A stretch of 64,000 nucleotides of DNA, taken from Candidatus Cloacimonadales bacterium. GTDB taxonomy: Bacteria; Cloacimonadota; Cloacimonadia; Cloacimonadales; JAFGVF01. Every line of letters starts with the position of its first letter. Positions within the stretch are counted from its first letter, which is position 1. Of the stretch, positions 2,179 through 60,693 are shown piece after piece. A model generated the notes under the pieces. That model was not told where the DNA came from. It did no database searches and saw only the letters and a list, made by a program, of their open reading frames with translations. The position numbers and the translations under genes are program-made. The stretch lies in assembly GCA_963677495.2 (NCBI GenBank), contig CAXXOU010000002.1:64001-128000 (forward strand), written 5' to 3'.

Positions 2179-2320
2179 ATTGCTCTTTTTAAACATACGG
2201 GACACACGCGGGAATCTCCCGGGACTCTCACGGGAATCACACGGGGCTTTGCCCGAGAAACTCCCGGTTTATTCGCGACTATGTCCCAAATTAATCCCGA
2301 GGGTTGAAAGTCAGAGCAAT
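2179..2320. repeat. Phased palindromic cassette, family A (CGGG/CCCG)
   Basis: ATTGCTCT...AGAGCAAT ends; CGGG at 2198, 2209, 2220, 2231, 2242; centre CGGGGCTTTGCCCG; CCCG-like at 2252, 2263, 2274, 2285, 2296. Confidence 0.9.
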
Positions 2321-2368
2321 TGCTGGTAACAGTGATTTAATCTTTGCTCATACTACTACGCTCCTTCT

Positions 2369-2504
2369 TCTCTCAGCAGTAATAATTAATGATTTGCTAG
2401 TGATTTCTTAGTAATAACTTACCCATTTCTTGGAAGTTAGGCCAAGGGTTGACCAAGTGTTTGCCAAGGATTAACCAAGTGTTTATCAAGAGTTACTGCA
2501 GAGA
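2369..2504. repeat. Phased palindromic cassette, family B (CTTGG/CCAAG)
   Basis: TCTCAGCAGTAA...TTACTGCAGAGA ends; (C/T)CAAG at 2442, 2453, 2464, 2475, 2486; degenerate CTT(G/A) left arm at 2407, 2418, 2429. Confidence 0.85.
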
Positions 2505-2531
2505 AAAGGGGGAGAAGTGCGTGTAATATAA

Positions 2532-2555
2532 AAGGACACAAACAAATGTGTCCTT
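2532..2555 (-). terminator. Probable intrinsic terminator of the Eis-like gene
   Basis: AAGGACACA-loop-TGTGTCCTT stem with an adjacent A-run. Confidence 0.55.
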
Positions 2556-2592
2556 GTGATTTAAGATTCGTTAACTGTTTGTATGATTACTA

Positions 2593-3810
2593 TTAAAAGT
2601 CCCAATCATAATGAGGTTGAGGTAGATTAATTGCATAATCAAGTTTCTCTAGTAACTCTTTAGGAGCTTCTAAATCATCAGAAACACTCAATTGAGTAGC
2701 TTTTAACGCACCACTCCATAATCTTGTGAAAGCATTTATTGTAGCTTTCATTGTTGGAAGCCCATCGGTGAAACCTTCTTTGAGATGTGATTTCCCACTT
2801 AAGTCAATTGTATACTCTCCACCAACACCTCTCCAGGCAATCTCTTCTGGAATATATTTTGAGATTGGATCACTCAATTCAAGGTTAAAATTAACTGGCT
2901 TTACGGTTTTCATTACTGAAACACATCTCTCTAAATTCACAATTCTAAGTTGAGACCAACATGAAGCTCTACTGAAGTTTTGGAATTTAGAACCATGAGT
3001 AATACGATTATAGGTAAAAGGCTTCTTCAAGAAATCCTGAAACTGGATTCCGGGTGGTTCCACTATGCGAACTATGTTTATCTGGTCACCGAAGCTCTTA
3101 ATAAGTGCTAAAAGATCAAGGAGTTGCTCATATGTCTGATAGATTAAATAGGTTGTATATGGACCATGTTCGCGACCTCGTCCATAAATCCAGATTAGAT
3201 GAGTTAACATGCCATTATCATCCCTGAAACCATAACCTTGATAGTTTTCATTGTCCTGCAAATCGGCTTTTGTTGCAACTTCACTTAGATAAGCATTACC
3301 ATGCATTTGGAGACGATTAATTCTTAATTCATGGATTTCTGTTGCATGAGAAAGGTCTAAACGCACCGGTACAGGAATCTCTCTCTCAAGTTTCAGGTTT
3401 GATGGTGAGAACCAAATCATATGCTCATAAGGATTGTTGCCAAAGCCAAGTTGGTTGTAATAACCTTGTTCAAAGAAGCCAAGTCCTGAAACATCAGCAC
3501 CATCAAGTGCATCAAGAGCAACCTTTGATGCTGTTAACCTAGAAGCCAGCCTCTGTTTTCTAGCAACAATACCGGTACCAACTCCGGCAACAGCTGAGAG
3601 ATTAAGCCTAGTGCCATTATAGTTGTATCCCCCTAGTATGGAGGTAACGAAACATTCAACAGAACCATTAAGCTCTGAAACGATAGTCCTGCTCTGTGGA
3701 ATGCATTCGTTTAGCCAGAAGTTTTCTTTCTTAGAAACCCAGCCAATTTCATTAGCAATCCTAAACATTGCTTCTTTGTCTGTCTCATGATTATAATTTC
3801 TATAACGCAT
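2593..3810 (-). CDS. Eis-like GNAT acetyltransferase with C-terminal SCP2-like domain
   Basis: GNAT motif A region (VAGVGTGIVARKQRLA...YYNQLGF); about 405 aa ending in DWDF; start reassigned to MRYRNY after an AGGAGG RBS. Confidence 0.7.
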   Translation of the reverse strand: MRYRNYNHETDKEAMFRIANEIGWVSKKENFWLNECIPQSRTIVSELNGSVECFVTSILGGYNYNGTRLNLSAVAGVGTGIVARKQRLASRLTASKVALDALDGADVSGLGFFEQGYYNQLGFGNNPYEHMIWFSPSNLKLEREIPVPVRLDLSHATEIHELRINRLQMHGNAYLSEVATKADLQDNENYQGYGFRDDNGMLTHLIWIYGRGREHGPYTTYLIYQTYEQLLDLLALIKSFGDQINIVRIVEPPGIQFQDFLKKPFTYNRITHGSKFQNFSRASCWSQLRIVNLERCVSVMKTVKPVNFNLELSDPISKYIPEEIAWRGVGGEYTIDLSGKSHLKEGFTDGLPTMKATINAFTRLWSGALKATQLSVSDDLEAPKELLEKLDYAINLPQPHYDWDF

Positions 3811-3945
3811 AAATCCTCCTGTGACAAAAAGTGTAGATACAACATTATAAGTCAAGAAGATAATGAAATGAGATGGTGTTGAAGATAAATAAGTGAAGAA
3901 GAAAAAGCAGAATGCATTCAAATGCAATCTGCTTTAAAACATATA

Positions 3946-4022
3946 TGGAGCTAAAGATGGGATTCGAACCCACGACCTATTGATTACGAATCAAGTGCTC
4001 TACCGGACTGAGCTACTTTAGC
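3946..4022 (-). tRNA. tRNA-Thr(CGT)
   Basis: Reverse complement GCTAAAG...TTCGTAA anticodon loop...TTCGAAT...CTTTAGCTCCA cloverleaf. Confidence 0.93.
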
Positions 4023-4725
4023 GGTTCATTCCTTTAAATACTGAGTTTATGTGTGGTTCGTTAATTGTCAGGTTGTAAACCCTGAAGAATTCATCTTTAT
4101 CGGGAGTTTGAATTTCATTCTTCCAAGTTAAATTATAACTTTGCGGTAATATCCAGTTGAGTTTAACCACCTCTTTCTTACTAATATTGGTAGGATACCA
4201 GTAATCAAGGGCATTGAAAGTGAATTCACTCTTAGAGTCATTGTAAATATCAGTTTGTGGTTGTGAATAAAGGGAATAATGAATAATGAATTGAAGCTCT
4301 TCCTCTTCCTTCATGTCATCAGTTAAGTGTACCTGAAAAATATTGGCATTCTCTTTAATATGATCCACAATTTTAACAGGAACATAATCAGGAAAATCAC
4401 CGTTAAGATAACGATCGACAATGAATACATCTTTACGTTGTTTATTCACAGCGACAGTATTCAAAACGATATCCCTTTGCATGATGAAACAAACAATAGG
4501 CCAATCTTTAACGTCTTCAGTTTTAATTGTAAAAACGTCCTTCATGTTGAGTACATCAACATCAGCTTGATATTTTATGCAAATATCATGTTCGTCAACA
4601 GGCATAAGTTTAATGGGAAAAACTCTCTTCTTTGGAGTTTTATCCTTTGCTTTTCCACAACCATTAAAAAAAAGACTCCCGACAACAATAACGAATAGTA
4701 ACACGAGTTTAGTAATAATTCTCAT
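4018..4725 (-). CDS. Hypothetical lipoprotein
   Basis: Signal peptide with lipobox-like FNGC; 235 aa. Confidence 0.65.
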   Translation of the reverse strand: MRIITKLVLLFVIVVGSLFFNGCGKAKDKTPKKRVFPIKLMPVDEHDICIKYQADVDVLNMKDVFTIKTEDVKDWPIVCFIMQRDIVLNTVAVNKQRKDVFIVDRYLNGDFPDYVPVKIVDHIKENANIFQVHLTDDMKEEEELQFIIHYSLYSQPQTDIYNDSKSEFTFNALDYWYPTNISKKEVVKLNWILPQSYNLTWKNEIQTPDKDEFFRVYNLTINEPHINSVFKGMNR

Positions 4726-4778
4726 GCAGTTAAATACACGTGAGAATGTTATGGCGTCAAGAGAAAAGTTCGTAATTG

Positions 4779-5798
4779 TTAAATATTTCTTACACCTTTA
4801 GTAGAAAAGGCATTTGCGGTCAATGTAGAATATTCTCCATTTCTATACTTTCTAATAGCAGCAGCACCTATCATTGCTGCATTATCCATACACAGTTTAA
4901 GTGGTGGATATGCAAGCTTAATGTGGTATTTAGAAGATTCTTTAAGCATTTTAGCTCTAAGATCGGAGTTTGCAGAGACTCCTCCGGCTAAAACAATCTG
5001 TTTAGCATTGGCTTTTCTCGCATAAGATATGGTCTTTTTCACCATTATATCATTGATTGCTGCCTGTAATGAAGCTGCAATATTGGCTTTGTTCTCTTCA
5101 AGAAATGGATCTGATTTATCTCGGACATAAGTCATAATTGCAGTTTTTAATCCACTAAAACTAAAATCATAGTTATCCTTTCTATTGAGTGCACGAGGGA
5201 AATGATGGAACTTAGGGTCGCCCTCTTTAGCAAGTTTATCAATAATTGGGCCACCGGGATAACCGAGTTCAAAGAGCTTTGCTGTCTTGTCATAAGCTTC
5301 TCCGGCTGCATCGTCGAGAGTTCGTCCAATCACATCAAATTGTTCCCATGTTTTGAAATGAACCAGCTCTGTATGTCCACCGGAAACAACTAAGGCAACA
5401 AAAGGTGGATTTAAATCCGGATTCTCGATTAGGTTTGCATAGATATGACCAACCATGTGATTCACTGTAATCAATGGGAGATCTCTACTCCAGGCTAGGC
5501 CTTTCGCAAACGACAAGCCCACTAGAAGTGAACCAATTAGCCCTGGATTAACTGATACAGCTACAGCATCAATGTCACTTAATTCTCTTTGTGCCTTATC
5601 CAAAGCATGGTGAGTTAGGCTGACAATATTTTTTAAATGTAATCTTGAGGCAATTTCAGGGACAACTCCCCCAAACTCCTCATGCTTGGTTTGGGATGAA
5701 ATAAGGTTTGATAGTACCTTATAATCCTGATCTATTACTGCAACCGATGTGTCGTCGCATGAAGTTTCAAACGCTAATATAGTAAATTTATCTTTCAA
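4779..5798 (-). CDS. tsaD: tRNA N6-adenosine threonylcarbamoyltransferase TsaD
   Basis: ETSCDDT, GGVVPE, HxxGH, SGGHT, DDAAGEAYDK, FSFSGLKT, DNAAMI motifs. Confidence 0.97.
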   Translation of the reverse strand: MKDKFTILAFETSCDDTSVAVIDQDYKVLSNLISSQTKHEEFGGVVPEIASRLHLKNIVSLTHHALDKAQRELSDIDAVAVSVNPGLIGSLLVGLSFAKGLAWSRDLPLITVNHMVGHIYANLIENPDLNPPFVALVVSGGHTELVHFKTWEQFDVIGRTLDDAAGEAYDKTAKLFELGYPGGPIIDKLAKEGDPKFHHFPRALNRKDNYDFSFSGLKTAIMTYVRDKSDPFLEENKANIAASLQAAINDIMVKKTISYARKANAKQIVLAGGVSANSDLRAKMLKESSKYHIKLAYPPLKLCMDNAAMIGAAAIRKYRNGEYSTLTANAFSTKGVRNI

Positions 5799-6669
5799 TT
5801 ATCTGTACCTTTTCCGGACTGAATTCAAGTAGCATAAGTTCGGGAGGTAGTATAATGTCAAGTTTTCTTGTGCTTGTAGATTTATCTGAGCTGTCAGGCT
5901 TAACGATTATTGAGCTAACAGATAGAGTGTCCAGCTGTTGCTTAGGTCCGACCAATCTGATTGAAGCCCACTTCGGAATGGATTGTTCTCCTGAATCAAC
6001 TTTTACCGGAACCAAAGAGAATGTTTTAGAAACGATATCCTTCTCTGGTTTCAATATTGTTATGTCATGGTTTGTGATTAGCACGTTTTCATGTGGTGGC
6101 AATATAGCAACAGTAACATCATTACTTACAAGATTCTCTTTTGTAATGCTCTCAGTTTCAAGAAACTCTAATCTATCTAAAACCGATTCAGCTCCTGTTG
6201 CCTCAATAAGTTTGGGATTGTAATTATAGCCTGTCTCAATATATCTTTTCTTAACTTCATCATTGAGAAAATTTAGTTTGATCGGAATACTGCGACTAAC
6301 AAGAAGATCAGTCTCAATATAGAAATCTTTTTGTAGCGTTGGTTCAAACTTAAGGGATTTGAATCTAGATGGATGCATCACTTCAAAAGATTGCCATGGA
6401 ATAGAGCTATCTTCTACATTTATATCCCCCATATCTACTCTAATATAAATGTTTGCATTTTTTACAAGTATCAAATCAAAAACTTTTCCCTGGATAGAAT
6501 ATTTTATGCTTCTTTGAACTAAACGAGGTAATGACATACCGGCCGGAATATTCTCAACCTTTACCGGTATCTCTATAGAGATGCTATCAATCTGTGAAAA
6601 ACGGAATACAACCCAGAACATTGTTGCAATCAGAATCGATAGAACAAAGAGTAGCTGAGGTCTTCTCAT
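5788..6669 (-). CDS. YbbR/CdaR-like membrane-anchored protein
   Basis: Single N-terminal TM helix followed by repeated YbbR-like beta domains (IPVKVENIP...; VPVKV...P..V). Confidence 0.6.
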   Translation of the reverse strand: MRRPQLLFVLSILIATMFWVVFRFSQIDSISIEIPVKVENIPAGMSLPRLVQRSIKYSIQGKVFDLILVKNANIYIRVDMGDINVEDSSIPWQSFEVMHPSRFKSLKFEPTLQKDFYIETDLLVSRSIPIKLNFLNDEVKKRYIETGYNYNPKLIEATGAESVLDRLEFLETESITKENLVSNDVTVAILPPHENVLITNHDITILKPEKDIVSKTFSLVPVKVDSGEQSIPKWASIRLVGPKQQLDTLSVSSIIVKPDSSDKSTSTRKLDIILPPELMLLEFSPEKVQIIER

Positions 6670-6670
6670 A

Positions 6671-8077: not shown

Positions 8078-8276
8078 GTCTAAAAAACTCCCCTGATGTT
8101 TTGAACAAAATTTGACATTTTTCCAAAAATAGTCAAGTCGTTTCTTTTTTACTTGTAAATGCAATAGTAAGTGAAAGTTCACATATCAGGGAAAAGCTCT
8201 TCTGATTTTTGGTTTAAATTAGCTTAGTTATTTAGAATAATCCCGGTTCGTTGATTTACTCCAAAGAGTTAGATAA

Positions 8277-8357
8277 CCACGGCTCAACCACGGGCAATCC
8301 ACGCCCAAACGCCGGAAGCCGTGGTCAACCCGTGGTTTACCCGTGGTCAACCCGTGG
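8277..8357. repeat. Phased palindromic cassette, family C (CCACG/CGTGG)
   Basis: CCACG at 8277, 8288, 8299; CGTGG at 8320, 8331, 8342, 8353; no clear terminal inverted repeat. Confidence 0.85.
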
Positions 8358-10817: not shown

Positions 10818-10841
10818 TGTAACTTACAATGATTTACTGAA

Positions 10842-11372
10842 ATTCAGGGAGTTTGTCGGCCTGATAATGCAATGAACTCCCTGTCTTGCTATCCGAAGGA
10901 AGAAGTGAGTCGCAATAGAATGTGACTCGCTAATTCCATTCAGGGTGACATGTTGAGGGATTTGCTTCTGCAAATCCGATAACCATGCTTGTCATCCCGA
11001 TCGAGTGAGGATACGAATGAGCAGAGGGATCTCTCCGATAACTTTAGTTTCCCAACTGAAGAGCAGTACTTTTCCGAGGAAAACATTCAGAAGATAAGTC
11101 AATACATTATCACAAATCCCCTAAAGCCACCCGAGCGACCCGTTCGACTTCGTCACTTCATTACATTTTGTTCACAACGCTCAGGGTGACATACACAGTG
11201 CCATTTGCAATAACTTACCGCATTTCAGGGAGTTTGTCAGCCTGATAAGGCAACGGACTTCCTAAAATGCACTCCGAAGTCGCATGTCCCTGATTTCGTT
11301 CTCGCGTCACGCTATCGCTGCAACGCAAGTCCGAAATGGACATACACAGTGCCATTTGCAATCACTTAGCTA
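10842..11372. repeat. Cluster of short REP-like repeats
   Basis: TTCAGGGAGTTTGTC(G/A)GCCTGATAA near 10843 and 11224; TCAGGGTGACA twice; GACATACACAGTGCCATTTGCAAT at 11188 and 11339. Confidence 0.7.
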
Positions 11373-11401
11373 CATTCCCTGCTCTTTTTACTCTCCTTTA
11401 C

Positions 11402-11557
11402 TGCTCTATGCATCAACCCACTGTGTCTGCACTGTGTACGCACTGTGAAGGCACTGCCAACCCACTGTTTCACTGGGTGCACAGTGCGTGCACAGTGGGA
11501 AAACAGTGGGATGACTGCGTTTTGTTAAAGAGTTTAATGAAAGTTTGCAATATCGCA
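11402..11557. repeat. Phased palindromic cassette, family D (CACTG/CAGTG)
   Basis: CACTG at 11419, 11430, 11441, 11452, 11463; CAGTG at 11482, 11493, 11504; core nearly identical to 40597-40677; right end approximate. Confidence 0.88.
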
Positions 11558-16982: not shown

Positions 16983-17110
16983 TCAATTCACGGGAAACAC
17001 ACGGGACTCTCCCGGGAATCTCTCGGGACTCACTCGGGGCTTTGCCCGAGTGAGTCGCTTTTGATTCCCGCTTGAATCCGGAACAATTCCCGAGTATTGA
17101 ATTGGAGCAA
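16983..17110. repeat. Phased palindromic cassette, family A
   Basis: CGGG at 16991, 17002, 17013, 17024, 17035; centre CGGGGCTTTGCCCG; CCCG/CCGG at 17045, 17067, 17078, 17089; ends GGAGCAAT. Confidence 0.9.
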
Positions 17111-22477: not shown

Positions 22478-22617
22478 GCATATATGGCAATGTACAAAGG
22501 GTATACCAAACGAAGAGTGTGGTGACGTATTTAAAAATATCTTGCCAAATTGAGTTAATGTTTTAATATTCGATCATAATTAATAAATATGTAGTTAGAA
22601 CTCCAACGGAGGATGAT

Positions 22618-24246
22618 ATGAAAATTGGTATAAGACACACTTTTTTAATGCTACTTATCACTTTATTAGCGGTTAACACTCTCTTTGCCCAGAATTCAAT
22701 GGAACTCATCTGGGAGAGCCAAGGAGAACATCCCGACTCTGAATATGGCTCCTCCATGACATCTATGGATTTTAATGGTGATGGTATTGATGACTTGGTA
22801 GTTGGTTCAAGGTCTTATGAACCAGGTGAAACCCCATCTTTACTCGGTAAGATTTATTTCTATTATGGGGGGGGTAATTTTTCAACAACCCCTAATCTAA
22901 CAATTACAGGGTCTTATGCTAGTTACACAGGGGTTTCTTTACACAACTTTGGAGATGTTAATGGGGATGGTTTTGATGATCTTGGGTTATATCGTCGAGA
23001 CCCAATCTATGAGATAAAAGCTGTTATTGATATCTATTATGGAGGAGTAAACTGTGATACAATCCCTGATTTTAGTTATGATATCATGCGAGGAACCGGG
23101 GATGATGAGATTGAAGACATTTTTTCACTTTATCCTTTAGGTGATGTTAATGGAGATGGTTGTTCTGATGCAGGATATGTTCTTCTAGGTATGAGTCACG
23201 TAAATCCCTTTTCTCATTTCTATATTATATATGGTGATGAAGAGGAACCCTATGTAGAGTTCTGGAAAGATACCGGACCGTATCGTAATGGAGATGTCAT
23301 TAGTGGAAGTGCAATACGAGAGATTGGGGATATTAATAGTGATGAGTTTGATGATTTTATTATTGGTTATTTTGATGCTGAAGACCTGTTGACTAAAAAC
23401 TCAATTATCTATGGGGCTACTGTTGTTGATACAATTTTAACGAACATTGTTTTTCAAGGCACTAACTTTCTACCGGGTGGAGTTGCTTGCGGGGATATAA
23501 ATGGAGATAGTGTTGATGATTTCATTGGAGCTAAAAAATATGCCGGTACATGCCCGGGAATATGGCTGGGTGGGAATCAAAGCAATGTAGTACCTGATAT
23601 TCACTTATCAAATTATGGGCAATATAACAATGGAATAGCACATGGTGATTTGAATGGAGATGGTTATTCAGATTTAGTGATTGGTAGTCCTTGCTGGAGT
23701 TTAGATCAGGGAAAGGTCTATTTCTTCTTTGGGCATGAAGACCCCAATGGACTGCGGGATTATGAAATTGAAGCCCCTATCATAAACCATTCTGAATTTG
23801 GGACTTCCGTTGCAATTGGTGATTTTAATAGTGATGGATATGATGATACAGCAGTTGGGGCTCCCGGCACAGGTACAAATTATGCTGGACATGCCTATGT
23901 ATATGCCGGCGATGCATCATTGTATGATACTACAGTATCAATCTCGGATGATACAATCCCTGCACCTTATGGAGTTGAGTTTACAGCATACCCAAATCCC
24001 TTTAATCCATCAGTGCAGTTCAGTGTAAAGACAGATAAAGAGTATAATAAACTTGAAATTCAGATTTATAATGTGAAAGGACAACTTGTAAATATACTTA
24101 ATGCAAGTAAAACTCAAAAGGAGCAAACAGTTACTTGGGATGGAGTCGATAGTAAGGGTAAGAATGTATCTTCCGGGATTTATCTCTGTAAGTTAACTTC
24201 GAGTAATACAATTCTAAGTTCTGTTAAGGTTTCATTGATAAAATAG
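22618..24246 (+). CDS. Secreted FG-GAP (integrin-alpha-like beta-propeller) repeat protein with C-terminal FlgD-Ig/T9SS-like sorting domain
   Basis: Signal peptide; seven DxNxDxxxD-type repeats; YPNPFNP...IYNVKGQLV...WDG.D..G..VSSGIY. Confidence 0.88.
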   Translation: MKIGIRHTFLMLLITLLAVNTLFAQNSMELIWESQGEHPDSEYGSSMTSMDFNGDGIDDLVVGSRSYEPGETPSLLGKIYFYYGGGNFSTTPNLTITGSYASYTGVSLHNFGDVNGDGFDDLGLYRRDPIYEIKAVIDIYYGGVNCDTIPDFSYDIMRGTGDDEIEDIFSLYPLGDVNGDGCSDAGYVLLGMSHVNPFSHFYIIYGDEEEPYVEFWKDTGPYRNGDVISGSAIREIGDINSDEFDDFIIGYFDAEDLLTKNSIIYGATVVDTILTNIVFQGTNFLPGGVACGDINGDSVDDFIGAKKYAGTCPGIWLGGNQSNVVPDIHLSNYGQYNNGIAHGDLNGDGYSDLVIGSPCWSLDQGKVYFFFGHEDPNGLRDYEIEAPIINHSEFGTSVAIGDFNSDGYDDTAVGAPGTGTNYAGHAYVYAGDASLYDTTVSISDDTIPAPYGVEFTAYPNPFNPSVQFSVKTDKEYNKLEIQIYNVKGQLVNILNASKTQKEQTVTWDGVDSKGKNVSSGIYLCKLTSSNTILSSVKVSLIK

Positions 24247-24386
24247 ATGTAGTCTACTTGCTCCGCAGTGAGCAGTATTGCTGCGAATGTGGGGCGAGGA
24301 AATAAAGAACTTGCCAGTATTAGTCAATGTTTTAATATTCAATCGTAATTAATAGATATGTAGTTAGAACTCCAGCGGAGGATGAT

Positions 24387-26014
24387 ATGAAAATAGGTAG
24401 AAAACACTCTTTTTTAATGCACTTAATTCTTTTAATAGCGATTACCACACTCTTTGCAGAGAATTCAATGGAACTAATCTGGGAGAGCCAAGGAGAGCAT
24501 CCGGACTCTGAGTATGGTTCCTCAATGACCTCAATGGATTTTAATGGTGATGGTATTGATGACTTGGTAGTTGGTTCAAGGTCTTATGAACCAGGTGAAA
24601 CCCCATCTTTACTCGGTAAGATTTATTTCTATTATGGGGGGGGAATTTTTCAACAACCCCTAATCTAACAATTACAGGGGCTTATGCTAGTTACACAGGG
24701 GTTTCTTTACACAACTTTGGAGATGTGAATGGGGATGGCTATGATGATCTTGGGCTTTATCACTATGTATCCAATTATGATATAAAAGCTGTTATCGACA
24801 TTTACTATGGAGGTGTAAATTGTGATACAATCCCTGATTTTAGTTATGATATCATGCGAGGAACCGGGGATGATGAGATATGGGACATTTTTTCACTTTA
24901 TCCTTTAGGTGATGTTAATGGAGATGGTTGTTCTGATGCAGGATATGTTCTTCTAGGTATGAGTCACGTAAATCCCTTTTCTCATTTCTATATTATATAT
25001 GGTGATGAAGAGGAACCCTATGTAGAGTTCTGGAAAGATACCGGACCGTATCGTAATGGAGATGTCATTAGTGGAAGTGCAATACGAGAGATTGGGGATA
25101 TTAATAGTGATGAGTTTGATGATTTTATTATTGGTTATTTTGATGCTGAAGACCTGTTGACTAAAAACTCAATTATCTATGGGGCTACTGTTGTTGATAC
25201 AATTTTAACGAACATTGTTTTTCAAGGTACTAACTTTCTACCGGGTGGAGTTGCTTGCGGGGATATAAATGGAGATAGTGTTGATGATTTTATTGGAGCT
25301 AAAAAATATGTCGGTACATGTCCGGGAGTTTGGTTGGGTGGAAATCAGAACAATGTAGTCCCTGATATTCACTTATCCAACTATGGGCAATATGAGAATG
25401 GAATTGCACATGGGGATTTGAATAATGATGGGTACTCAGATTTAGTGATTGGTAGTCCTTGCTGGAGTTTAGATCAGGGAAAGGTCTATTTCTTCTTTGG
25501 GAATGATGAGCCCAATGGACTGCGGGATTATGAGATTGAAGCTCCTATAATCACCAGCTCAGAGTTTGGTACATCATTAGCAATTGGTGATTTCAATAAT
25601 GATGGATGTGATGATGTAGCAGTTGGAGCTCCTGGAAGAGGATCTCAGTATGCCGGACATGCCTATGTATATGCTGGAGATGCATCATTGTATGATACTA
25701 CAGTATCAATCTTGGATGATACAATTCCTACACCTTATGGAGTTGAGTTTACAGCATACCCAAATCCCTTTAATCCATCAGTGCAGTTCAGTGTAAAGAC
25801 AGATAAAGAGTATAATAAACTTGAAATACAGATTTATAATGTGAAAGGACAACTTGTTAATACTTTGAATACAGGTAAAGTGCAAAGAGATCAAACAGTT
25901 ACTTGGGGCGGAGTCGATAGTAAAGATAATAAGGTAGCTTCCGGAGTATACTTATGTAAGCTAACCTTCGGGAATACTATTTTAAGTTCTGTTAAGGTGT
26001 CTTTGATAAAATAG
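24387..26014 (+). pseudogene. Tandem paralog of the FG-GAP protein, frameshifted at a G8 tract
   Basis: ORFs 24387-24668 and 24725-26014 align with the upstream copy; one base is missing at GGGGGGGG (24636-24643) relative to GGGGGGGGT in copy 1. Confidence 0.85.
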
Positions 26015-31660: not shown

Positions 31661-31802
31661 CATTGCTCTATCATAATTAGGAGCACAATTTACTGGGTTT
31701 CTGCCCCAACAATTATGAAACACTTGTCCTCAACCCCCAGGGTTGCCCAAGAGACTCACAGGATTTCCTAACTTTTCTTTGCGTTATTAAGATAGAGCGA
31801 TG
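31661..31802. repeat. Degenerate family A cassette (same ends and length, eroded interior)
   Basis: CATTGCTCTATCATAAT...ATTAAGATAGAGCGATG, 142 bp, the same length as the 52221-52362 copy. Confidence 0.8.
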
Positions 31803-33376: not shown

Positions 33377-33424
33377 AATAGTTTTGATAGATGTGGGAGC
33401 TCATTATAATGAACTCCCTTTTTT

Positions 33425-34112
33425 TATCCTGAAAGGATAACCCAATGTTAGCCATGTGGCTTTAGCCCATGGATTAAGAATAGAACACCGATTCGACCCT
33501 GAAGGGGTCGCCCAATCAAATATAATCTTCATTGAAATCAACCCCGGCATTGTGTAACATTTGTTTATACTCTTCTTTAGAAGAAAATAGTTTGTGATGT
33601 TCCTGCTGATGTTTTATGTAATCCATTATTGGTTTTCTATCTCTCCACGTGATTGAGAATGCCCCATATCCATTTTGCCATCCTCTAAAACTTGGACATA
33701 CATCATTCTCCTTCATCCAATTTCCTAAAGATGCCTTCATAAGTTTAACAAAGTCAGATAAGCATTGCTGAGGATGTATTGAACACAGTACATGTATATG
33801 GTCATCCATCATGTCCATTTGATAAACGTATGATTTATGGTTCTTAAGAACTCCCCATAAATAGCCTAAAATCTCATCTCGTTTCGATAGATTCAATGTA
33901 CGATAACGTTCTTTTGTACTAAAGACAATGTGATACAATATTTGAGTAAAAGTGGACATTGTTCCTCCTGTTTTCTACAGATATAGATAATATAACTAAG
34001 AATAGATTTTGAGCAATATTGTGATGGGCAACCCCTTCAGGGTTGAATATTTAATTGCAATTTTCCCATAGGTTAAAACCTATGGCTAACCGTGGGTAAC
34101 CCTTTAAGGGTT
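33425..34112. mobile_element. Y1 transposase (IS200/RAYT-like) unit bounded by about 88-bp imperfect inverted REP-like repeats
   Basis: 33425-33514 and 34025-34112 are imperfect reverse complements, each made of three small hairpins. Confidence 0.8.
33516..33959 (-). CDS. tnpA: IS200/IS605-family Y1 (HUH) transposase, RAYT-like
   Basis: YHIVFSTK, DHIH (HUH), WQNGYGAFS, YIKHQ catalytic Tyr; no tnpB. Confidence 0.9.
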   Translation of the reverse strand: MSTFTQILYHIVFSTKERYRTLNLSKRDEILGYLWGVLKNHKSYVYQMDMMDDHIHVLCSIHPQQCLSDFVKLMKASLGNWMKENDVCPSFRGWQNGYGAFSITWRDRKPIMDYIKHQQEHHKLFSSKEEYKQMLHNAGVDFNEDYI

Positions 34113-34166
34113 AAGGAGAAAAGGGAGCCTGCTATTGCAAACTCCCTATATTATATATTAAATCTA

Positions 34167-37517: not shown

Positions 37518-37653
37518 CTCTCTGCAGTAACTAGTCATTGTAAACAGGTTTTAACTTGGCGATAGGTTGGTAAATTCTTGGCAATTAGGCCAAGAATAGG
37601 CCAAGGGTTTACCAAGGGTTTGCCAAGTGTCTACCAAGAATTACTGCAGAGAG
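37518..37653. repeat. Phased palindromic cassette, family B
   Basis: Perfect 13-bp ends CTCTCTGCAGTAA/TTACTGCAGAGAG; CCAAG at 37590, 37601, 37612, 37623, 37634; (C/G)TTGG at 37555, 37566, 37577. Confidence 0.9.
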
Positions 37654-40322: not shown

Positions 40323-40560
40323 ATTATTGTTACTAAAATCGCATCAATATGTGTTTACTGGAATGACTCCATGCGTTTGATAGTCAACTAATCTAAGTTA
40401 TTGGCTCAATACCGAATAGAGTGGAACTCCCATTGGTCGCTTCAAACTTTCGCTTGAAGCTTCGTCTAGACAGGTGGACTCGTCCATCAGATTAAGAACA
40501 TACACAGTGCCTTTTGCAACGACTTAACTATATTTATTGCCCTTTTTGCACTCTTTCAGT

Positions 40561-40704
40561 GCTCTAGCAAGCAACGCACTGTTTTCCCACTGTGCACGCA
40601 CTGTGAAGGCACTGCCAACCCACTGTTTCACTGGGTGCACAGTGCGTGCACAGTGGGAAAGCAGTGGGATGACTGCGGTTTTATGAATGGATTTGTACTG
40701 GAGC
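40561..40704. repeat. Phased palindromic cassette, family D
   Basis: GCTCTAG...CTGGAGC ends; CACTG at 40577, 40588, 40599, 40610, 40621; CAGTG at 40640, 40651, 40662; preceded by ACATACACAGTGCCTTTTGCAA as at 11340. Confidence 0.88.
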
Positions 40705-41033
40705 GATCTGATCAACTCCAATCTTAAGGAGAAGCATTAAATTAAGAAACCACCTTTTTAAATAGATCAAGAATTTCTAAAATTGCCGTTCTGGTTATAC
40801 CTTCGGAATGGTCCTTAGACCTTGCGAATGGTTCTCTTGAAAGTTTACGTAAAAATAGCAACTTCCACCATTTGCAAGGTCTCGCAAAACTCAACCATTC
40901 CAAAGGTAGAGAATCATAATTAGGTTGCCCGATACAACTCTGAAAATAGTTATTGCTTGACATGATAAGTAGCAATGTAGTTATACAAATAGTATTACTC
41001 TATGCAACTTGAACATAGAGTTAGGAGTTGAGT

Positions 41034-42299
41034 ATGAATGAGAAATTGATAATAAAGAATTTTCTTGCTATTGAGCATGCTGAGGTAGATATTAAACGGT
41101 TCAATGTTATAATTGGACCTCAGGCTAAGGGTAAGAGTGTAATAGCTAAGGTGTTGTATTTCTTTCGGACTGCTATGGAATTTTATCTGGTTAGTTTCGA
41201 TAAGTTTTATGATGAGCAAGCAATCATTGATGAACTTATAAACAAGTTTAGAGAGTGGTTCCCATATTATACATGGAAAGAAAAAAGATTCAACTTAAAT
41301 TATATAATAGGTAGCCACATGTTGTCACTATCAAATGAAATTGATTCACTAAATAATCATGTTTTAGTGATGAGTTTTCCAGATAAGTTCACCACTATAA
41401 GAGATACAATACTTGATGAAAAGAAGAGCGATTCATTACTTATGGAGACTAGCTTAAGTAGTGCATTAAAAAAATCATATTTGAGCGTCGAATTTGCCCG
41501 TGAATTAAGATTGCCTTCAATGGAAACAACTTACATACCAGCTTCAAGATCATTTCTCTCGTTTCTACAAAACAATATGTTCTCTTTTATTCGTGGTAAA
41601 AACAAAGTAGATCCTTTCCTAATAGAATTCGGTAGTATTTATGAGACAGCAAGAAGAGAGTATGAAAGTCTTGGTACGGTATTAGATTTGTTTTTAGAGC
41701 TAGATGTAGGAACGATAGATAAAATAAAGAAGATAATAGAAGAAATAGTTCAGGGTAGGTACGTATTCGAAGATAGAAAGGATTGGATAATTAGCTCCAA
41801 CAATATCCAAAAAACAGAATTATCATATAGCTCCTCAGGACAACAAGAGGCTATACCAATGCTTATTGTTTTAGCATATTTTATGTATATTAAGGATGGT
41901 CAGAATTACCACAATCTATGCCTTTTAGAAGAACCTGAAGCTCATCTATTCCCACAGTCTCAAAATCAAGTAATCTCTATGCTATCACTTTTATATGATG
42001 AACTTAAGACAAATTTCTTCATCACAACCCACAGTCCATATATACTCTCAGCCATCAATAACTTGATCCTTGCTGGTGATACTATAAATGCAGGCAAGAT
42101 GACACGTGAAGAGTTTGAAAAGATTAATGGTCCGAGTGCACCAATAAACCTTGATGATGTAGCAGCATACACTATTGTTGATGGTAAAACTGAGTCAATA
42201 GTTGATTATGATTACAGACTTATTGGGGGAGATATTCTTGATAGTGTATCTGATCATTTTTCCAACGTTATGAATGAGCTGTTGAAACGGGATATGTAG
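41034..42299 (+). CDS. ABC/AAA_15-AAA_21-type ATPase
   Basis: Walker A GPQAKGKS, signature SSGQQE, Walker B LLEEPEAHLFP, H-loop ITTHSPY; no TM partner. Confidence 0.85.
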   Translation: MNEKLIIKNFLAIEHAEVDIKRFNVIIGPQAKGKSVIAKVLYFFRTAMEFYLVSFDKFYDEQAIIDELINKFREWFPYYTWKEKRFNLNYIIGSHMLSLSNEIDSLNNHVLVMSFPDKFTTIRDTILDEKKSDSLLMETSLSSALKKSYLSVEFARELRLPSMETTYIPASRSFLSFLQNNMFSFIRGKNKVDPFLIEFGSIYETARREYESLGTVLDLFLELDVGTIDKIKKIIEEIVQGRYVFEDRKDWIISSNNIQKTELSYSSSGQQEAIPMLIVLAYFMYIKDGQNYHNLCLLEEPEAHLFPQSQNQVISMLSLLYDELKTNFFITTHSPYILSAINNLILAGDTINAGKMTREEFEKINGPSAPINLDDVAAYTIVDGKTESIVDYDYRLIGGDILDSVSDHFSNVMNELLKRDM

Positions 42300-42300
42300 A

Positions 42301-42729
42301 ATGGATTGGGTAAAGTGTACAATTGCAAGGAAAGATCCAATAATCACTTTGAAAGAAAATGGTAAAGTCTTTAGGTTAATAAACGAAAACAGAATAGAAG
42401 TGAATGAAATAAAAGTAGATAATTGTTTGATTTGTGATAACAGACAGCGATGCGACTATATCTTGGATTATCCGATCGATGAACAGGGTTATGTATTGTT
42501 AATTGAACTCAAAGGGAATGACGTACCTCATGCAATTGAACAATTGAAAGCTACTTTGAGTCATACAAAATCAAAGTATAGTAAGTATTGTAAATATTGT
42601 TTTATAATCTCCTCAAAGTGGCCAAGAATGAGTACTACTAAACAAAAGATAAAAAAAGACTTCAAGAGACTTGGAGCTTTGTTTGATCAAAAAAACAATG
42701 TGTTTGAGTTCAAGGTTTCTGCATTCTAA
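42301..42729 (+). CDS. Small basic protein with possible PD-(D/E)xK nuclease fold
   Basis: RCDY...LLIELKG...AIEQL pattern; starts 2 nt after the ATPase stop. Confidence 0.6.
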   Translation: MDWVKCTIARKDPIITLKENGKVFRLINENRIEVNEIKVDNCLICDNRQRCDYILDYPIDEQGYVLLIELKGNDVPHAIEQLKATLSHTKSKYSKYCKYCFIISSKWPRMSTTKQKIKKDFKRLGALFDQKNNVFEFKVSAF

Positions 42730-52220: not shown

Positions 52221-52362
52221 CATTGCTCTATCTTAATTCACGGGAGTATGACGGGATTTGCTAAGGATTTTCAAGGGAATTTCTCGGGCAAAGCCCCGAG
52301 AGATTCCCGAGAGAGTCCCGGGTGATTCCCGAGAAAGTCCCGTGAATTAAGATAGTGCAATG
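52221..52362. repeat. Phased palindromic cassette, family A, opposite orientation
   Basis: 25-bp inverted ends with one mismatch; centre CGGGCAAAGCCCCG; CCCG at 52295, 52306, 52317, 52328, 52339. Confidence 0.92.
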
Positions 52363-56234: not shown

Positions 56235-56713
56235 TGAGACGTAAACCTAAAGGAAACTTCTGCGAGATAAAGAAATACAGGTTGATTACACCTTCCATTT
56301 GCAGTGTCTGTGAACGTATAGGGTTCTGCAAATCGTTCCGCGAATACTATTATAAAAACAAAACAAAATACAGAAATTTCTGTTACCAACAAGTAGAAAA
56401 ATTTCCTGATAAATATCAATTGGAGGTAGTTTTCATGGCTACAAAGAAGACATTTGTTCAAATCGTGAACAAGAAAACAGGTCAGATCGAAAGGATTATG
56501 AGTATGGATGACCTGAATGCATTAACTCTAGAAGAGAAGATTGGAATCGTAAGAGGAAAGCAATTATTCCAGATTGCTTATGAGATTGAACCTGTGATTA
56601 AGGTTGAAATGAAGAAGAAAGCAATAGTTGAAGAGATTAACTATGAGCCTGAAGAGGTAAAACCGGAACCGAAGAAGACAACAAGAACTCGAAAAACCAC
56701 TCCTAAGAAGTAG
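56234..56713 (+). CDS. Hypothetical protein (alternative start at 56435)
   Basis: ORF coupled to the flippase stop; Cys cluster at the N-terminus; internal GGAGG RBS before in-frame ATG 56435. Confidence 0.5.
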   Translation: MRRKPKGNFCEIKKYRLITPSICSVCERIGFCKSFREYYYKNKTKYRNFCYQQVEKFPDKYQLEVVFMATKKTFVQIVNKKTGQIERIMSMDDLNALTLEEKIGIVRGKQLFQIAYEIEPVIKVEMKKKAIVEEINYEPEEVKPEPKKTTRTRKTTPKK

Positions 56714-57872
56714 ACTTGTTACCTTTATTAACAAGTCGCTTCTTACGATGCGACCAAAGCTCTCGTTGTTTATCAACTGAGATTGGCATTAGGTTTAGGT
56801 AGTCAATTGCTCTTTGAGTATATTGCAATGCCTTCTCAATGTCTTTTACTTTGTGTTCGTAGTATTTCGCCAGCTCTTCAAGTGCTGCGAAGTTGCTTGT
56901 TAGAATAGGTTTACTCCAGATTTGAACCGCTTTATCAAGTTGTTTCTCTTTCTTGTAAAGTGAAGCTAAACGCAATAAAGCATCAGCATCGGAACAGTTT
57001 TCGTCAATAGTCTCAAGCAGTTCAACTGCACGTTTTTGCATACCGGCATTCTCGTAGTATTTACTGCTTGGCAGGATATGTTCCTCTTCCTCTTGAAGAA
57101 GAATGTTGCTAATATGATTCAGGATTATCGGCATACTCAGAATATCTGTAGCATTATGGTCATGAATCTTGATTATATCATCAAGGTAACCTGTCTCAAG
57201 AAAGTTAAAATACGCCCAGGGGATCTTCCATCCGGGAATCTCATCTTCAGGATTTCTGTTATATCCCAAAACTTCACTTTCAATTGTCTGCAAAGAACAA
57301 TCAATAAGTTTCCCCTTCCAGAACCTTCTGACAATATGCAATAGATCTATCTGTTTAAAGGATTTCACCATGTAATTCAATTGATAGTAGTCGTAACGGG
57401 ACTGTAATAAGTTCATATCATAGCTTTTACCATTATAGTTGACGATTATATCGAAGTCTTCTAAGAACTTTCTTATTTCCTCCAGCATCCTAATCTCACC
57501 ATCAGGAGCATTCAAAAACCACCTTCGAACAACGAACCAGTTATCCACAAAATGCCCCAATCCCACGAGCACTGCATATGAAGCACCACCTGTGTTTAAG
57601 CCTGTTGACTCTGTATCAAGATATAGTACTTTATCATAAGGGACATCACTAAGAATCTTCTCTTTCTTCTTTATTACATCTGCAATCTTTGGTATTGATA
57701 AGGTGCAATTCCCAAACTCTGAATCTAAATCATAATAAACTTCTGAATAAAACAACGACTCTGTTATATATCTACCTTCTATATGGTCAGCAATGGAAGC
57801 TTCTGACTTGTTATCATCCTTCTCCTCGATCTTCTTATTGAGCTGATTAAGAATGTTATCAAGACCTTTCAT
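56703..57872 (-). CDS. YprB/MrfB-like RNase H-fold (DEDD) exonuclease with C-terminal TPR-like helices
   Basis: YLDTESTGL, YNGKSYD, IDLL, HNATDI; LAKYYEH; directly downstream of the DUF1998 helicase. Confidence 0.82.
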   Translation of the reverse strand: MKGLDNILNQLNKKIEEKDDNKSEASIADHIEGRYITESLFYSEVYYDLDSEFGNCTLSIPKIADVIKKKEKILSDVPYDKVLYLDTESTGLNTGGASYAVLVGLGHFVDNWFVVRRWFLNAPDGEIRMLEEIRKFLEDFDIIVNYNGKSYDMNLLQSRYDYYQLNYMVKSFKQIDLLHIVRRFWKGKLIDCSLQTIESEVLGYNRNPEDEIPGWKIPWAYFNFLETGYLDDIIKIHDHNATDILSMPIILNHISNILLQEEEEHILPSSKYYENAGMQKRAVELLETIDENCSDADALLRLASLYKKEKQLDKAVQIWSKPILTSNFAALEELAKYYEHKVKDIEKALQYTQRAIDYLNLMPISVDKQRELWSHRKKRLVNKGNKSTS

Positions 57873-57873
57873 A

Positions 57874-60348
57874 CTAATGTACAAGCTCCTTTAAAATACC
57901 TAAAACAATCTCTTTAGAGCCTTCACCCTGCTCTGCAACAGGTCCAACACAAGCTGGACAACCATCACTACAGGAACACTGTTTCACAAGTTTATATGCT
58001 TCTCTCAAAAGCTCTGGATATATCTCATAGAGTCTTTTACAAAGCCCGATTCCACCATTTGCACTATCATGGAAGATAAGAGCAAACTCCTCACTCGAAA
58101 GGGGGTTGTTGGACTGATAGTTAACTCTTATATCTTTTCGATCACACATCAGATATACAGGTGATATGTTCTTCATTAGATAAGACATACCGGCAAGCCC
58201 ACTCTGGATAATTAGAGTTCGTTCAGCATCCTTGTGGCACTTTGGACAAAGAGTTGTCAGATTCTCGGGAGCATTAGCTTTCATTCGTGACGGGAAGCTC
58301 TTGAACGGTTTGATATGGTGCACATCAAATGCTTTACCGGATTCTGCTATTCCACATGCTTGACAGATAAACTTATCCCGCTCACGTATAATCTTTTTTA
58401 GATTAGCCCATCCTGGACCATAGTCATTTTTGTCATTATTCCACAGCCCAAGCTGTTTGAAATGCTCAATTGTTTCAGACTTAAAACCAAGCCAGAAACC
58501 GTCAGTTATGACTGTCATTGATGGCATCTCAAGCTCATGATAACTCAGTATCTCATTTGTATACCACTTTTGCCTTTTATAACCTGTAACTGTGTCTGTA
58601 ACCTGTATCTGCCCTGAATATGCTTTCAGCTCTTCTGCATCCTTCTCTTCATAAAGCTCTAAAAGCTCATACTCAGTTTTGCTCATAACCTGAGTGTAAT
58701 AATCTGAGTTAAAAGGCTCTAGCTGTGCTTCTTTCTTCTCAAAGTTCAGGTCGCTCACAAAGTATGTCTCTCCATTATGAATGTAGACAGCTTCAGGGTG
58801 TACCATCCAGTACGCACTTGGTTCATCTACAAGTCCGATTGTTTTACCTTCTGACTGAATTCTAAAGCTTCCTGCTCCGGTACTGCGGAGTGAGAACTTA
58901 TCAGCAGGGAACTCTTGTGACTTCCAATAATACTTATCTCTTGATTTGAATATCTTTCCGAGATTCTGTAGGTAACTTAGGTATTTGCTAAGGTCTTCAT
59001 CGCTTAGAGAGCCAAAATTCTCACCTTGCATAAATGGCTTCTCAAAAAGGGCACATTGCAGGTGAAATAGCAGTATGTACGGGTTGTCAGGATTAATCAA
59101 AGGTTCTTCAGGATTCCTCTCTAAGAGAAACTCGGGATGTTGAATGAAGTACTGATCCAAAAGCCCTGATCCGGCAACAAAGATAGTCATAGACTCAGTT
59201 GCCAGTCTTCCGGCTCTACCACTCTGTTGAGCAACTGAAGCAATACTACCGGGATAGCCACTGATAATCACATTATCAAGTCCACCAATATCAATACCCA
59301 GTTCAAGTGCATTGGTTGCAACCACCATCTTTATCTCTTCGTTTCTCAATCTATTTTCGATCACACGTCTTTCAGCAGGTAAGTATCCTGCTCGATACCC
59401 TAAAATCTCTGCATTTGCATCCTCTTTACTCAAGTTTAGGTATGAGATAAGAAGTTCTACAGAACGTCTGGTGACAGTAAAGATTAAGGATTGTCCCGGA
59501 AAGTCATAGAGGAAGTTACCCACTCTCACAGTTTCCTCGATTATGTTTCTTCTGATCCCAAGCTCTTTATTGATGATAGGGGGATTGTATAAGATAAAAT
59601 GCTTTTCACCGTGGGGAGATCCGTCATTGTCAACAAGCTCAAAATCCTCTTCTATCAGTTTGCTTATGAATGCATCAATCCCTGAGAGTGTTGCAGATGT
59701 GATAATGAACTGTAAGTTACCACCATAATGTGTAACTATGCGTTTCAGTCTTCTTAGTAGGTTAGCTATATGAGAGCCGAATACACCACGGTATATATGT
59801 ACCTCATCAATCACAACATATTTAAGCTTAGAAAAGAACCTGCTCCACTTTGTGTGGTTTGGTAAAATACCCAGATTCAGCATATCAGGATTAGACATTA
59901 TAATCCGAGATGATTCACGTATTTTATTCCTCTTTTCAGTGGGAGTATCACCGTCATAGACACCCGGTTTCTCATCTAATCCCAGTTCAGACATCAGTGC
60001 CGATAACTTAGTAATCTGGTCTTGGGCAAGTGCTTTCATAGGAAATAGTAATAACGATGTAGAATCTAAACCATTAAGAATGCTATTGAGAATTGGTAGC
60101 TGATAACATAGGCTTTTTCCACTTGCAACTCCGGTAGTGATGACAGCGTTTTTACCTTGTAGAATATGTTTAAGAGCTTCAGCTTGATGAGAATACAGAT
60201 GTATTATGTGTCTTTTATTCAAGAGCTTATGCAGTTCTGTATGCATCCCGTCAGGGATATCAGCATAATCAGCCGGTTTCATCGGTCTATGCTTCTCAAG
60301 AACAATATTGTTCCTAAAAGATGGGTTCTCAGTGAAATATTCGTACAT
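57874..60348 (-). CDS. YprA/MrfA (Hrq1-like) DEAH helicase with DUF1998 Zn domain and inserted HNH domain
   Basis: LYSHQ, GVASGKS, DEVH, SAT, ATNALELGIDIG, QQSGRAGR, CSCSDGCPAC; insert CQAC...VHHI...NLTTLCPKCH. Confidence 0.9.
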   Translation of the reverse strand: MYEYFTENPSFRNNIVLEKHRPMKPADYADIPDGMHTELHKLLNKRHIIHLYSHQAEALKHILQGKNAVITTGVASGKSLCYQLPILNSILNGLDSTSLLLFPMKALAQDQITKLSALMSELGLDEKPGVYDGDTPTEKRNKIRESSRIIMSNPDMLNLGILPNHTKWSRFFSKLKYVVIDEVHIYRGVFGSHIANLLRRLKRIVTHYGGNLQFIITSATLSGIDAFISKLIEEDFELVDNDGSPHGEKHFILYNPPIINKELGIRRNIIEETVRVGNFLYDFPGQSLIFTVTRRSVELLISYLNLSKEDANAEILGYRAGYLPAERRVIENRLRNEEIKMVVATNALELGIDIGGLDNVIISGYPGSIASVAQQSGRAGRLATESMTIFVAGSGLLDQYFIQHPEFLLERNPEEPLINPDNPYILLFHLQCALFEKPFMQGENFGSLSDEDLSKYLSYLQNLGKIFKSRDKYYWKSQEFPADKFSLRSTGAGSFRIQSEGKTIGLVDEPSAYWMVHPEAVYIHNGETYFVSDLNFEKKEAQLEPFNSDYYTQVMSKTEYELLELYEEKDAEELKAYSGQIQVTDTVTGYKRQKWYTNEILSYHELEMPSMTVITDGFWLGFKSETIEHFKQLGLWNNDKNDYGPGWANLKKIIRERDKFICQACGIAESGKAFDVHHIKPFKSFPSRMKANAPENLTTLCPKCHKDAERTLIIQSGLAGMSYLMKNISPVYLMCDRKDIRVNYQSNNPLSSEEFALIFHDSANGGIGLCKRLYEIYPELLREAYKLVKQCSCSDGCPACVGPVAEQGEGSKEIVLGILKELVH

Positions 60349-60552
60349 CTTATAAATCCTAGTAAGTATTACTTAATTCTTTTACTGATTTGGATGTTTA
60401 CTGTCAATGGAAAACATGAAAGTAAGAAGTCCATTCCTGTCATTTCGTCCATGATGGTCCACTTCTGTTAACTCAAGTCCACTAATTTCCATAATGAAAC
60501 TATTGCTAACCAAAACCTTTTCAAGTCTCTCAAAACCACCTCCCTTTAATAA

Positions 60553-60693
60553 CCCTTCTACGCCCGGTCTATCCATAGGCTTCTCACAGGTTAGTCTCCC
60601 GTTGCTCTCCCGTTGCTCTCCCGTTGCTCGCAACGAGTGGGAAACGAGTGAGAAACATCCAAAAAAGTTGTGGATAAACCGGGCGCAGAAGGG
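60553..60693. repeat. Phased palindromic cassette, family E (CTCCCGTTGCT)
   Basis: 23-bp inverted ends with 2 mismatches; tandem 11-mer CTCCCGTTGCT at 60596, 60607, 60618; centre CTCGCAACGAG; inverted GTG(G/A)GAAAC units. Confidence 0.88.

Follow-up and report, generated by a model that had tools for sequence, protein, structure and literature searches.

Intergenic arrays of 11-bp-phased words in a Cloacimonadota genome and their link to an orphan gene group in two phyla

The 64,000-nucleotide stretch analysed here (the window) corresponds to positions 64,001 to 128,000 of contig CAXXOU010000002.1 in the assembly GCA_963677495.2 of Candidatus Cloacimonadales bacterium, a genome of 3.4 Mb that is designated G000 below (the window being G000:C2:64001-128000). 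By its tsaD gene, G000 has its closest relatives in Cloacimonadota. An earlier note, made from the sequence of the window alone, had described ten intergenic elements of one design, with short words recurring every 11 bp and mirrored about a central axis, mostly within terminal inverted repeats. All ten stretches are indeed present and each is situated between long open reading frames (ORFs). Along the window they are as follows:

2179..2320, no strand assigned: solo array of the CGGGA/TCCCG family (23 genome copies) with a 9-bp terminal inverted repeat
2369..2504, no strand assigned: solo array of the CCAAG family (42 copies), one arm decayed
8277..8357, no strand assigned: solo array of the CCACG family (a cluster of 51 loci), no long outer stem
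11340..11557, no strand assigned: solo array of the CACTG family (64 copies) with a one-sided tail of ~65 bp
16983..17110, no strand assigned: solo array of the CGGGA family, upstream of an rRNA operon
31661..31802, no strand assigned: 12-bp terminal stem like that of the CGGGA family, no 11-bp phasing, family of ~8 copies
37518..37653, no strand assigned: solo array of the CCAAG family with a 15-bp terminal inverted repeat
40498..40704, no strand assigned: solo array of the CACTG family with the tail
52221..52362, no strand assigned: solo array of the CGGGA family, best-kept mirror (73%), 25-bp terminal repeat
60553..60693, no strand assigned: solo array of the CTCCCGTTG family, one perfect DnaA box in the right arm

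Nine of the ten show significant 11-bp phasing: matches of 4-mers at lags of 11 and 22 bp number 22-44 per element against about one in shuffled sequence (2000 shuffles each, p 0.0005), and the same nine give 0-1 matches at lags of 10 and 12. The tenth, at 31661-31802, has one match at 11-bp lags (p 0.53) and only its 12-bp terminal inverted repeat, so the phased design ascribed to all ten stands for nine, and this element is a doubtful or decayed member. The mirror likewise holds in part: end-to-end symmetry is significant in six elements (0.49-0.73 against 0.25), while at 2179, 2369, 11402 and 16983 the ends first assigned lie off-centre or one arm has decayed. Enclosure by terminal repeats is also less regular than described, as the 8277 element lacks a long outer stem (the core of its family is 86 bp) and the CACTG family reaches ~65 bp past its stem on one side only, with 184-nt copies at 11340-11523 and 40498-40681. 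Predicted folding as single-stranded DNA (DNA parameters) beats that of shuffled sequence in nine elements, with z from -2.1 to -10.2; the 2369 element folds no better than its shuffles (z -0.7). Contigs from four runs of one sample, probably the source sample, match the 2179 and 2369 elements and most of the 8277 element without differences, and no empty-site variants were seen in the reads of these runs, the joints reflecting other repeat copies. At gathering score no Rfam family is found over the ten elements, and in 11 array-bearing loci Rfam gives only below-threshold chance hairpin matches of miRNA type.

The design is prevalent across the genome. A first scan of G000 recovered 168 loci at lag 11; lags 10 and 12 gave 3 and 37, and a shuffled genome gave 2. 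A more sensitive one (phased-word score of at least 15 at lag 11) recovered 296 non-coding loci, against 14, 12, 3 and 3 at lags 9, 10, 12 and 13, respectively. The signal thus stands far above the shuffled background, genome-wide as in the window. Most of the 296 arrays fall in seven families of 64, 51, 42, 35, 24, 24 and 23 loci, the 51-locus CCACG cluster taking in a few loci with other words, and there are many small families besides, such as the CTCCCGTTG family with two copies in G000 and three seen in loci of a congener, G001. The families differ in their words and keep the same lag-11 layout, just as had been supposed from the window. Further copies extend to relatives: a search of 41 genomes found the CACTG family in four, which belong to a single genus.

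Consensus sequences show 3-6 units per arm, pyrimidine-rich outer stems and spacers that are position-specific across copies, from which it follows that the copies descend from whole elements. Two forms occur, one with two opposed arms and the other, seen in several genome-wide families, with a single arm closing in a palindrome. Words are better conserved than spacers in all seven families (word/spacer 0.98/0.88, 0.80/0.74, 0.90/0.74, 0.99/0.98, 0.91/0.74, 0.99/0.91 and 0.90/0.73). Of 263 copies, 228 have the exact array length, and among the 35 that deviate, 11 do so by a multiple of 11; the anchor-to-anchor length is exact in 33/37, 55/61, 23/27 and 18/21 copies. Compensatory double changes are near expectation in three families (17 against 16, 33 against 31, 17 against 17) and in modest excess in the other four, while concordance of the outer arms of the same copy is clear in one of six families (TAGGGAG, slight, 0/2000 shuffles) and borderline in two others. 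The word conservation, phased lengths and scarcity of compensatory changes together fit a protein reading duplex DNA better than a function as a hairpin. Nearest-neighbour identity has family medians of 76-91%. Arrays are found in convergent, divergent and co-directional gaps alike, and their density tracks intergenic space and is even along the contigs; a replichore or regional bias was accordingly rejected. Strand bias is confined to the CACTG (41 against 23) and CCACG (37 against 14) families, uncorrected for seven tests.

Clustering of the proteins of G000 brought out a 22-member orphan family of ~150 aa, named F150. Of 121 Cloacimonadota genomes, 79 contain it, with 1-32 matches per genome. 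Using the same cut-off throughout (score of at least 15 at lag 11 within 700 bp), arrays lie upstream of 32 of 67 F150 genes and downstream of one of 65 in nine Cloacimonadota genomes (six broken or partial matches excluded; one gene had no upstream DNA), typically 200-400 bp from the gene. A further 30 Cloacimonadota genomes gave 4/30 upstream and 0/30 downstream, with a lag-11 autocorrelation peak at -330 to -60 of F150 (20.3 against 5-6). Relative to control genes with an upstream gap of at least 250 bp, the association is seen outside the genus (13/57 F150 genes against 9/173 controls) as well as in G001 (7/11 against 16/68). Two genomes that lack an F150 match gave no arrays over 160 kb, a small sample. 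A further motif, TATA..TAGAGG, lies upstream of 36 of 98 F150 genes and downstream of 11 of 98, and does not accompany solo arrays.

The words appear to follow the genes. A tree of 47 F150 proteins contains three well-supported clades, each with at least 80% identity, whose members have one array family in common (CCAAG in three members, CACTG in two, GTGACCC in two), and an 80% identical best-hit pair likewise has the CCAAGG family on both sides; this sharing persists even where intervening repeats have shifted the array from -230 to -840. The window itself holds no F150 gene; nevertheless, of the six window elements that were compared, all but 31661 have a match among the arrays upstream of F150 genes within the genus. 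Thus, 2179..2320 is 85% identical over 78 bp to the array upstream of the F150 gene at C4:23735, 2369..2504 is 73% identical over 136 bp to that upstream of C4:946147, and 60553..60693 is 84% identical over 83 bp to that upstream of an F150 gene of G001 (L170). For the CCACG element the match to an F150-linked array is probably due to chance.

A second gene group, DUF6266 (PF19781), was tested on loci of Bacteroidota. In a first sample of 20 loci from 201 Bacteroidota genomes, one of them without upstream DNA, an array lies upstream of 12/19 genes and downstream of 0/19; in a second, with one gene per genome (30 of 276 matches in a 151-genome order-level set), the counts are 17/29 and 0/30 with a median position of -339. 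Both samples together give 29/48 upstream and 0/49 downstream, against 1/86 for control genes with a long upstream gap in the same DUF6266-bearing Bacteroidota. As in G000, the words vary by locus, and there are mirrored arrays as well as arrays with a single arm and a palindrome at its end. The Cloacimonadota genomes G013 and G014 (85-89%) and the Bacteroidota genome G156 (two solos) also contain solos that match an array linked to F150 or DUF6266 in the genome concerned. It is thus confirmed that the repeat class is real and non-random, and that it is linked to an orphan gene group in two phyla.

DUF6266 differs from F150 in an extra C-terminal FN3 domain (Z 11.7, rmsd 2.0, 93 residues), and F150 gives no score on PF19781: none of 141 members reaches E<=0.1 among the matches listed. 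The two resemble each other in the upstream 11-bp array, the N-terminal motif and the order of structural elements. G14 and R31/33 are kept in both, the N-terminal 60 residues are basic in both (median +6 and +8), and the confident models of both have strands at 14-16, 19-24 and 27-34 and then a helix that starts at 42-43. That both have the array upstream lends additional, though partly circular, support. Thus, the two families are likely to be distant homologs. Holders of DUF6266 include Flavobacterium and other cultured Bacteroidota. The N-terminal part of DUF6266 retrieved only leads under 0.9 from the Atlas, and one DUF6266 protein gave no matches in phage and plasmid collections. Atlas searches with F150 returned only unnamed Cloacimonadota clusters, its fold has no match at E<=0.001 in PDB and viral libraries (best Z 4.1), and PDB sequences give nothing below E 0.08. 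A likeness to the HMG-box (2/141 members, E 0.006) found no further support. Longer or fused forms of F150 did not score, which is weak evidence; G040 encodes forms of 350-400 aa resembling tandem F150 domains.

A close precedent for such an arrangement is the type II partition locus of plasmid R1, where, according to PMC2241845, parC comprises 159 bp with 11-bp repeats in two groups of five, located at the genes of its binder and bound by about one ParR dimer per repeat in a U-shaped complex. The arrays share with parC the 11-bp repeats in two sets near the gene of a candidate binder. In parC, however, every repeat is direct and the promoter is flanked by the repeats, whereas here the arms are opposed and lie 200-400 bp upstream, and there are hundreds of solo copies in the chromosome. 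A search of G000 for StbA/ParM (PF06406) gave no matches, as did the control of that search, and no conserved ATPase gene stands beside F150 in the eight loci listed. Among ribbon-helix-helix proteins the best likeness to F150 is that of TraM, with a Z of 4.1 across 49 residues, which is too low to be meaningful.

We propose, with a probability of roughly 0.55, that the array is the binding track of a partner protein of the F150/DUF6266 group, that the two form a small mobile cassette, and that arrays have also spread as solos. A turn of the helix takes about 11 bp; the element would then be a track on duplex DNA, with a word of 5-7 bp on one helix face at every turn, 3-6 words per arm, and usually two arms opposed at a central axis within an envelope of ~120-145 bp. 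The cassette would consist of the array, a spacer of 200-400 bp and the gene, whose product has a basic N-terminal domain of three strands and a helix, to which DUF6266 adds the FN3 domain. Like ParR on parC, such a protein might polymerise cooperatively on the array of its own cassette, adding one unit at every turn, with two filaments that run from opposite sides to the axis; word and protein would diverge together. By that analogy we lean towards direct binding of the array by the partner. The suggestion of the earlier note that the arrays are bound by a protein family with one specificity per array family is supported by the word conservation, the changes in multiples of 11 and the paralogs sharing an array family; the binding itself is what we infer from them. 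The cassette is envisaged as being copied as a unit of ~0.8 kb, and the arrays of several cassettes as having spread alone within the genus to ~300 solo sites, of which the window would hold ten.

Several observations weigh against this proposal. Within G000 the link is weak (11/22 F150 genes against 248/661 other genes with a long upstream gap) and the downstream gaps of F150 genes are shorter than the upstream ones; hence, the case for linkage rests on genomes with rarer arrays. Around half of the genes have no scored array: a clade of 153-aa F150 proteins has only one array among its nine rows, the counts are 0/6 in G040, 0/3 in G005 and 0/2 in G003, and the matches in G027 are weak. Conversely, G000 has no cognate gene for two of the families, TAGGGAG (35) and CGTTAG (24). 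The gene at C4:453465 has a CCACG copy at -530, but the closest relative of this gene has a different word, so the two are probably neighbours by chance. Some of the concordant gene-array pairs may reflect plain orthologous inheritance, and kinship inflates all significance values, so that the Fisher values, which treat kin as independent, are overstated. Among DUF6266 genes many arrays are one-armed, and an array phased at lag 10 precedes 16/48 of them (e.g. L141, L144, L151, L280, L283), often nearer the start codon. Finally, the profile comparison between F150 and DUF6266 is weak (hhalign probability 24-33%, E 5e-4 to 9e-4), and for F150 neither an assignment in Pfam, PHROG or PDB nor a catalytic motif was found.

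As for mobility, the loci at C2:33661 and C3:24324 share 822 bp at 96.8% identity from the left end of the array (-363) to the stop codon and nothing beyond, which indicates that array and gene were copied as a unit. Between the congeners, G001 sites orthologous to those of G000 lack arrays, have gained them or carry another family, with the same family at 0/5 syntenic array sites; hence, the presence/absence comparison proposed at the outset does reveal turnover. At the 11402 site the orthologous gap of G001 holds an array of the CTCCCGTTG family instead of CACTG, and two of the three rRNA operons of G001 have another array family where the 16983 element sits. A 155-bp insertion distinguishes G000 and G001 at the 3' end of a gene, and a filled/empty pair with a 75%-identical congener is too diverged for reading the ends. 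Target duplications, also looked for on the earlier suggestion, did not appear: no flanking direct repeat of 4-8 bp occurs at a fixed offset in seven families, the best counts lying inside the repeats. No recent burst of copies was found among the seven families, nor any catalytic partner. The alternative idea of a non-autonomous mobile element gains support from the 23-64 dispersed copies per family and from their turnover, and finds no backing in target duplication, burst or catalytic partner. The copying agent might be the partner, a host Y1 or insertion sequence (IS) enzyme, or recombination in repeat-rich gaps; dependence of copying on the partner is only a tentative option. A larger reading, which we hold unlikely, would make F150/DUF6266 a new minimal mobile element, with an autonomous cassette of ~0.8 kb, made up of the phased array and a single gene without known fold or chemistry, and with hundreds of non-autonomous solos. 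Its paralogs would read their own words, form helical filaments and promote copying or recombination, and genes would be gained, lost and rearranged at the arrays as docking sites, also in the defence slots bracketed by F150 pairs. Arrays as hot spots for breakpoints were not established in 400 kb of G001 (14/50 synteny breaks against 2/30 syntenic gaps; 7/41 against 2/27 for gaps below 3 kb).

A rather unlikely alternative to the partner-track proposal is that the arrays are hairpins akin to REPINs (pairs of inverted repetitive extragenic palindromic, or REP, sequences) or to miniature inverted-repeat transposable elements (MITEs), which a host HUH (RAYT) or DDE transposase would mobilise in single-stranded form, with F150 merely residing in repeat-rich islands. 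Most window copies are predicted to fold into long hairpins, the envelope length is fixed, the outer arms show the slight concordance given above, and G000 holds 14 Y1_Tnp matches. However, the Y1 genes carry their own, different flanking repeats, and arrays lie near 3/14 of them against a background of about one third, so that a RAYT link was rejected. Target duplication at any fixed offset is absent, and the link to the 5' side of DUF6266, in genomes where arrays are otherwise rare, is left unexplained. REPs are known to serve as IS targets, a habit that the arrays share. According to PMC3116915, REPIN/RAYT systems of Pseudomonas and E. coli comprise several families of imperfect intergenic palindromes of ~100-150 bp per genome; every family has a cognate gene, present singly and next to one of the copies, and compensatory changes are common. 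The several palindrome families, the cognate gene and the targeting by IS elements are points of likeness; however, the cognate gene here is not a HUH transposase, the unit is a phased word rather than a short REP hairpin, compensatory changes are scarce and the array is only 5' of its gene. With MITEs the arrays share the short, dispersed copies of fixed length with terminal inverted repeats, and differ in having no target duplication and in being best conserved in the interior. Array ends are not common to the IS3-, IS21- or IS110-type ends examined, and a search for ends shared with autonomous IS elements in five transposase clusters of up to four copies each matched only 100% identical neighbouring sequence. 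Ends of attC type (RYYYAAC ... GTTRRRY, 50-145 bp apart) flank 3/296 arrays, and neither CRISPR nor curated models match, the spacers being of 4-6 bp and position-specific. The exclusion of CRISPR, REP and attC elements made at the outset holds on these tests.

Three observations on repeats and IS elements may be recorded here. In the window, a Y1/RAYT gene (33516-33959) lies within 33423-34114 between its own inverted flanks of REP type, and the site is empty in G001. A 1.3-kb IS3-type element (rve and HTH) has six copies in G000 (C2:141733, 234314, 359414; C3:92603; C4:220926, 1237757 (L307)). Each copy adjoins a CCAAG-family array with the same one of its ends and in a constant orientation, and the 5-bp flanks are identical; the element apparently targets one array family, for which the insertion of IS1397 at BIMEs offers a comparison. 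Two near-identical IS110 copies (C2:338137 and C4:269217) lie in CCACG-type sequence, one of them inside a full array.

It is improbable that the reader is instead DnaA or another universal host protein, acting on arrays of low-affinity sites nucleated by perfect boxes. The low-affinity arrays of E. coli oriC have an 11-bp pitch. Two oppositely oriented arrays of such sites are named in the title of Rozgaja 2011. The likeness lies in two opposed arrays of weak sites beside strong boxes. Perfect TTATCCACA boxes number 154 in G000 against ~42 expected, and 95 of them are at arrays, 83 in just three families and often as a head-to-head pair forming the axis; the units of the 8277 element look like degenerate DnaA boxes, and those of the CCACG and GTGACCC families resemble the box more than most shuffled boxes do (3/60 and 4/60 reach them). 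Yet these two families are borderline, and for the other five, shuffled boxes do as well as the real one. Most of the words bear no relation to the box, there are ~300 copies, no unwinding element is seen at the arrays, and the design recurs in other Cloacimonadota and in Bacteroidota with unrelated words and no boxes seen. Moreover, G000 has a single dnaA gene, while the words follow the F150 clade. DnaA may still bind the box-bearing subset. Five perfect boxes cluster (C1:766198-766420) ~100 kb from the dnaA gene, which itself has three boxes around it (C1:868189-869752).

We give still less credence to arrays acting as RNA, in which a long hairpin with an 11-nt period, one turn of the A-form, would be bound by the partner or affect transcript stability. 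Strong hairpins are predicted in most copies, and orientation relative to the flanking genes is biased in CACTG (24 against 7) and CGGGA (6 against 0); against this, the other five families have no such bias, the elements occupy gaps of every orientation, covariation is little, several families repeat on one arm only, and Rfam yields only its below-threshold chance matches. Functionless debris, i.e. slippage minisatellites and decayed cassettes kept alike by recent copying or gene conversion, is very improbable, for although identities to nearest neighbours are only 76-91%, density follows intergenic space and none of the five syntenic array sites keeps its family, slippage gives no cause for an exact period of 11 across dozens of unrelated words in two phyla, the words outlast the spacers, and F150 fragments number only 2-3 against ~300 arrays.

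The arrays thus fit none of the known families tested, and together with their gene module they are apparently undescribed; no account of them or of DUF6266 was found in a literature search that lay outside subscription journals, ISfinder and supplements. The repeats of PMC4679880 have 7-bp units and are of a different class. With the partner-track proposal, repeats that had no explanation become one half of a protein-DNA pair that can be tested, and DUF6266 acquires its first functional lead, in cultured Bacteroidota where experiments are routine. If binding is true, dozens of natural paralog-word pairs would provide a code with orthogonal specificities for a DNA-binding domain that has no known fold. 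If the protein also moves arrays, it would represent a class of mobile element with no known transposase, one that moulds the regions between genes, draws in IS elements and flanks variable defence cargo.

In several loci (L247-L253; e.g. G000 C1:774894-782349 and C4:1498355-1504079) divergent F150 pairs, usually one array-less member of the 153-aa type and one other, enclose a variable cargo of 4-8 kb that includes type II methylases, Lamassu (LmuABC), PDC-S06 and PDC-M04, and the cargo between orthologous pairs differs between G000 and G001. G000 also encodes ~10-19 arrays of 7-bp period, some beside F150 and four-helix-bundle-like genes. In the window, a mosaic of other palindromic repeat families (10824-11370) adjoins the CACTG array, and similar mosaics occur around many F150 genes. 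Directly downstream of the array at 40561 lie an AAA ATPase gene and a 142-aa gene (41028-42729) that match the PADLOC entries AriA/PDC-M29A and PDC-M29B. Elsewhere in the window (22535-26014), an FG-GAP gene with a T9SS-type tail is present as a tandem duplication with a period of ~1768 bp, the second copy being split into two ORFs.

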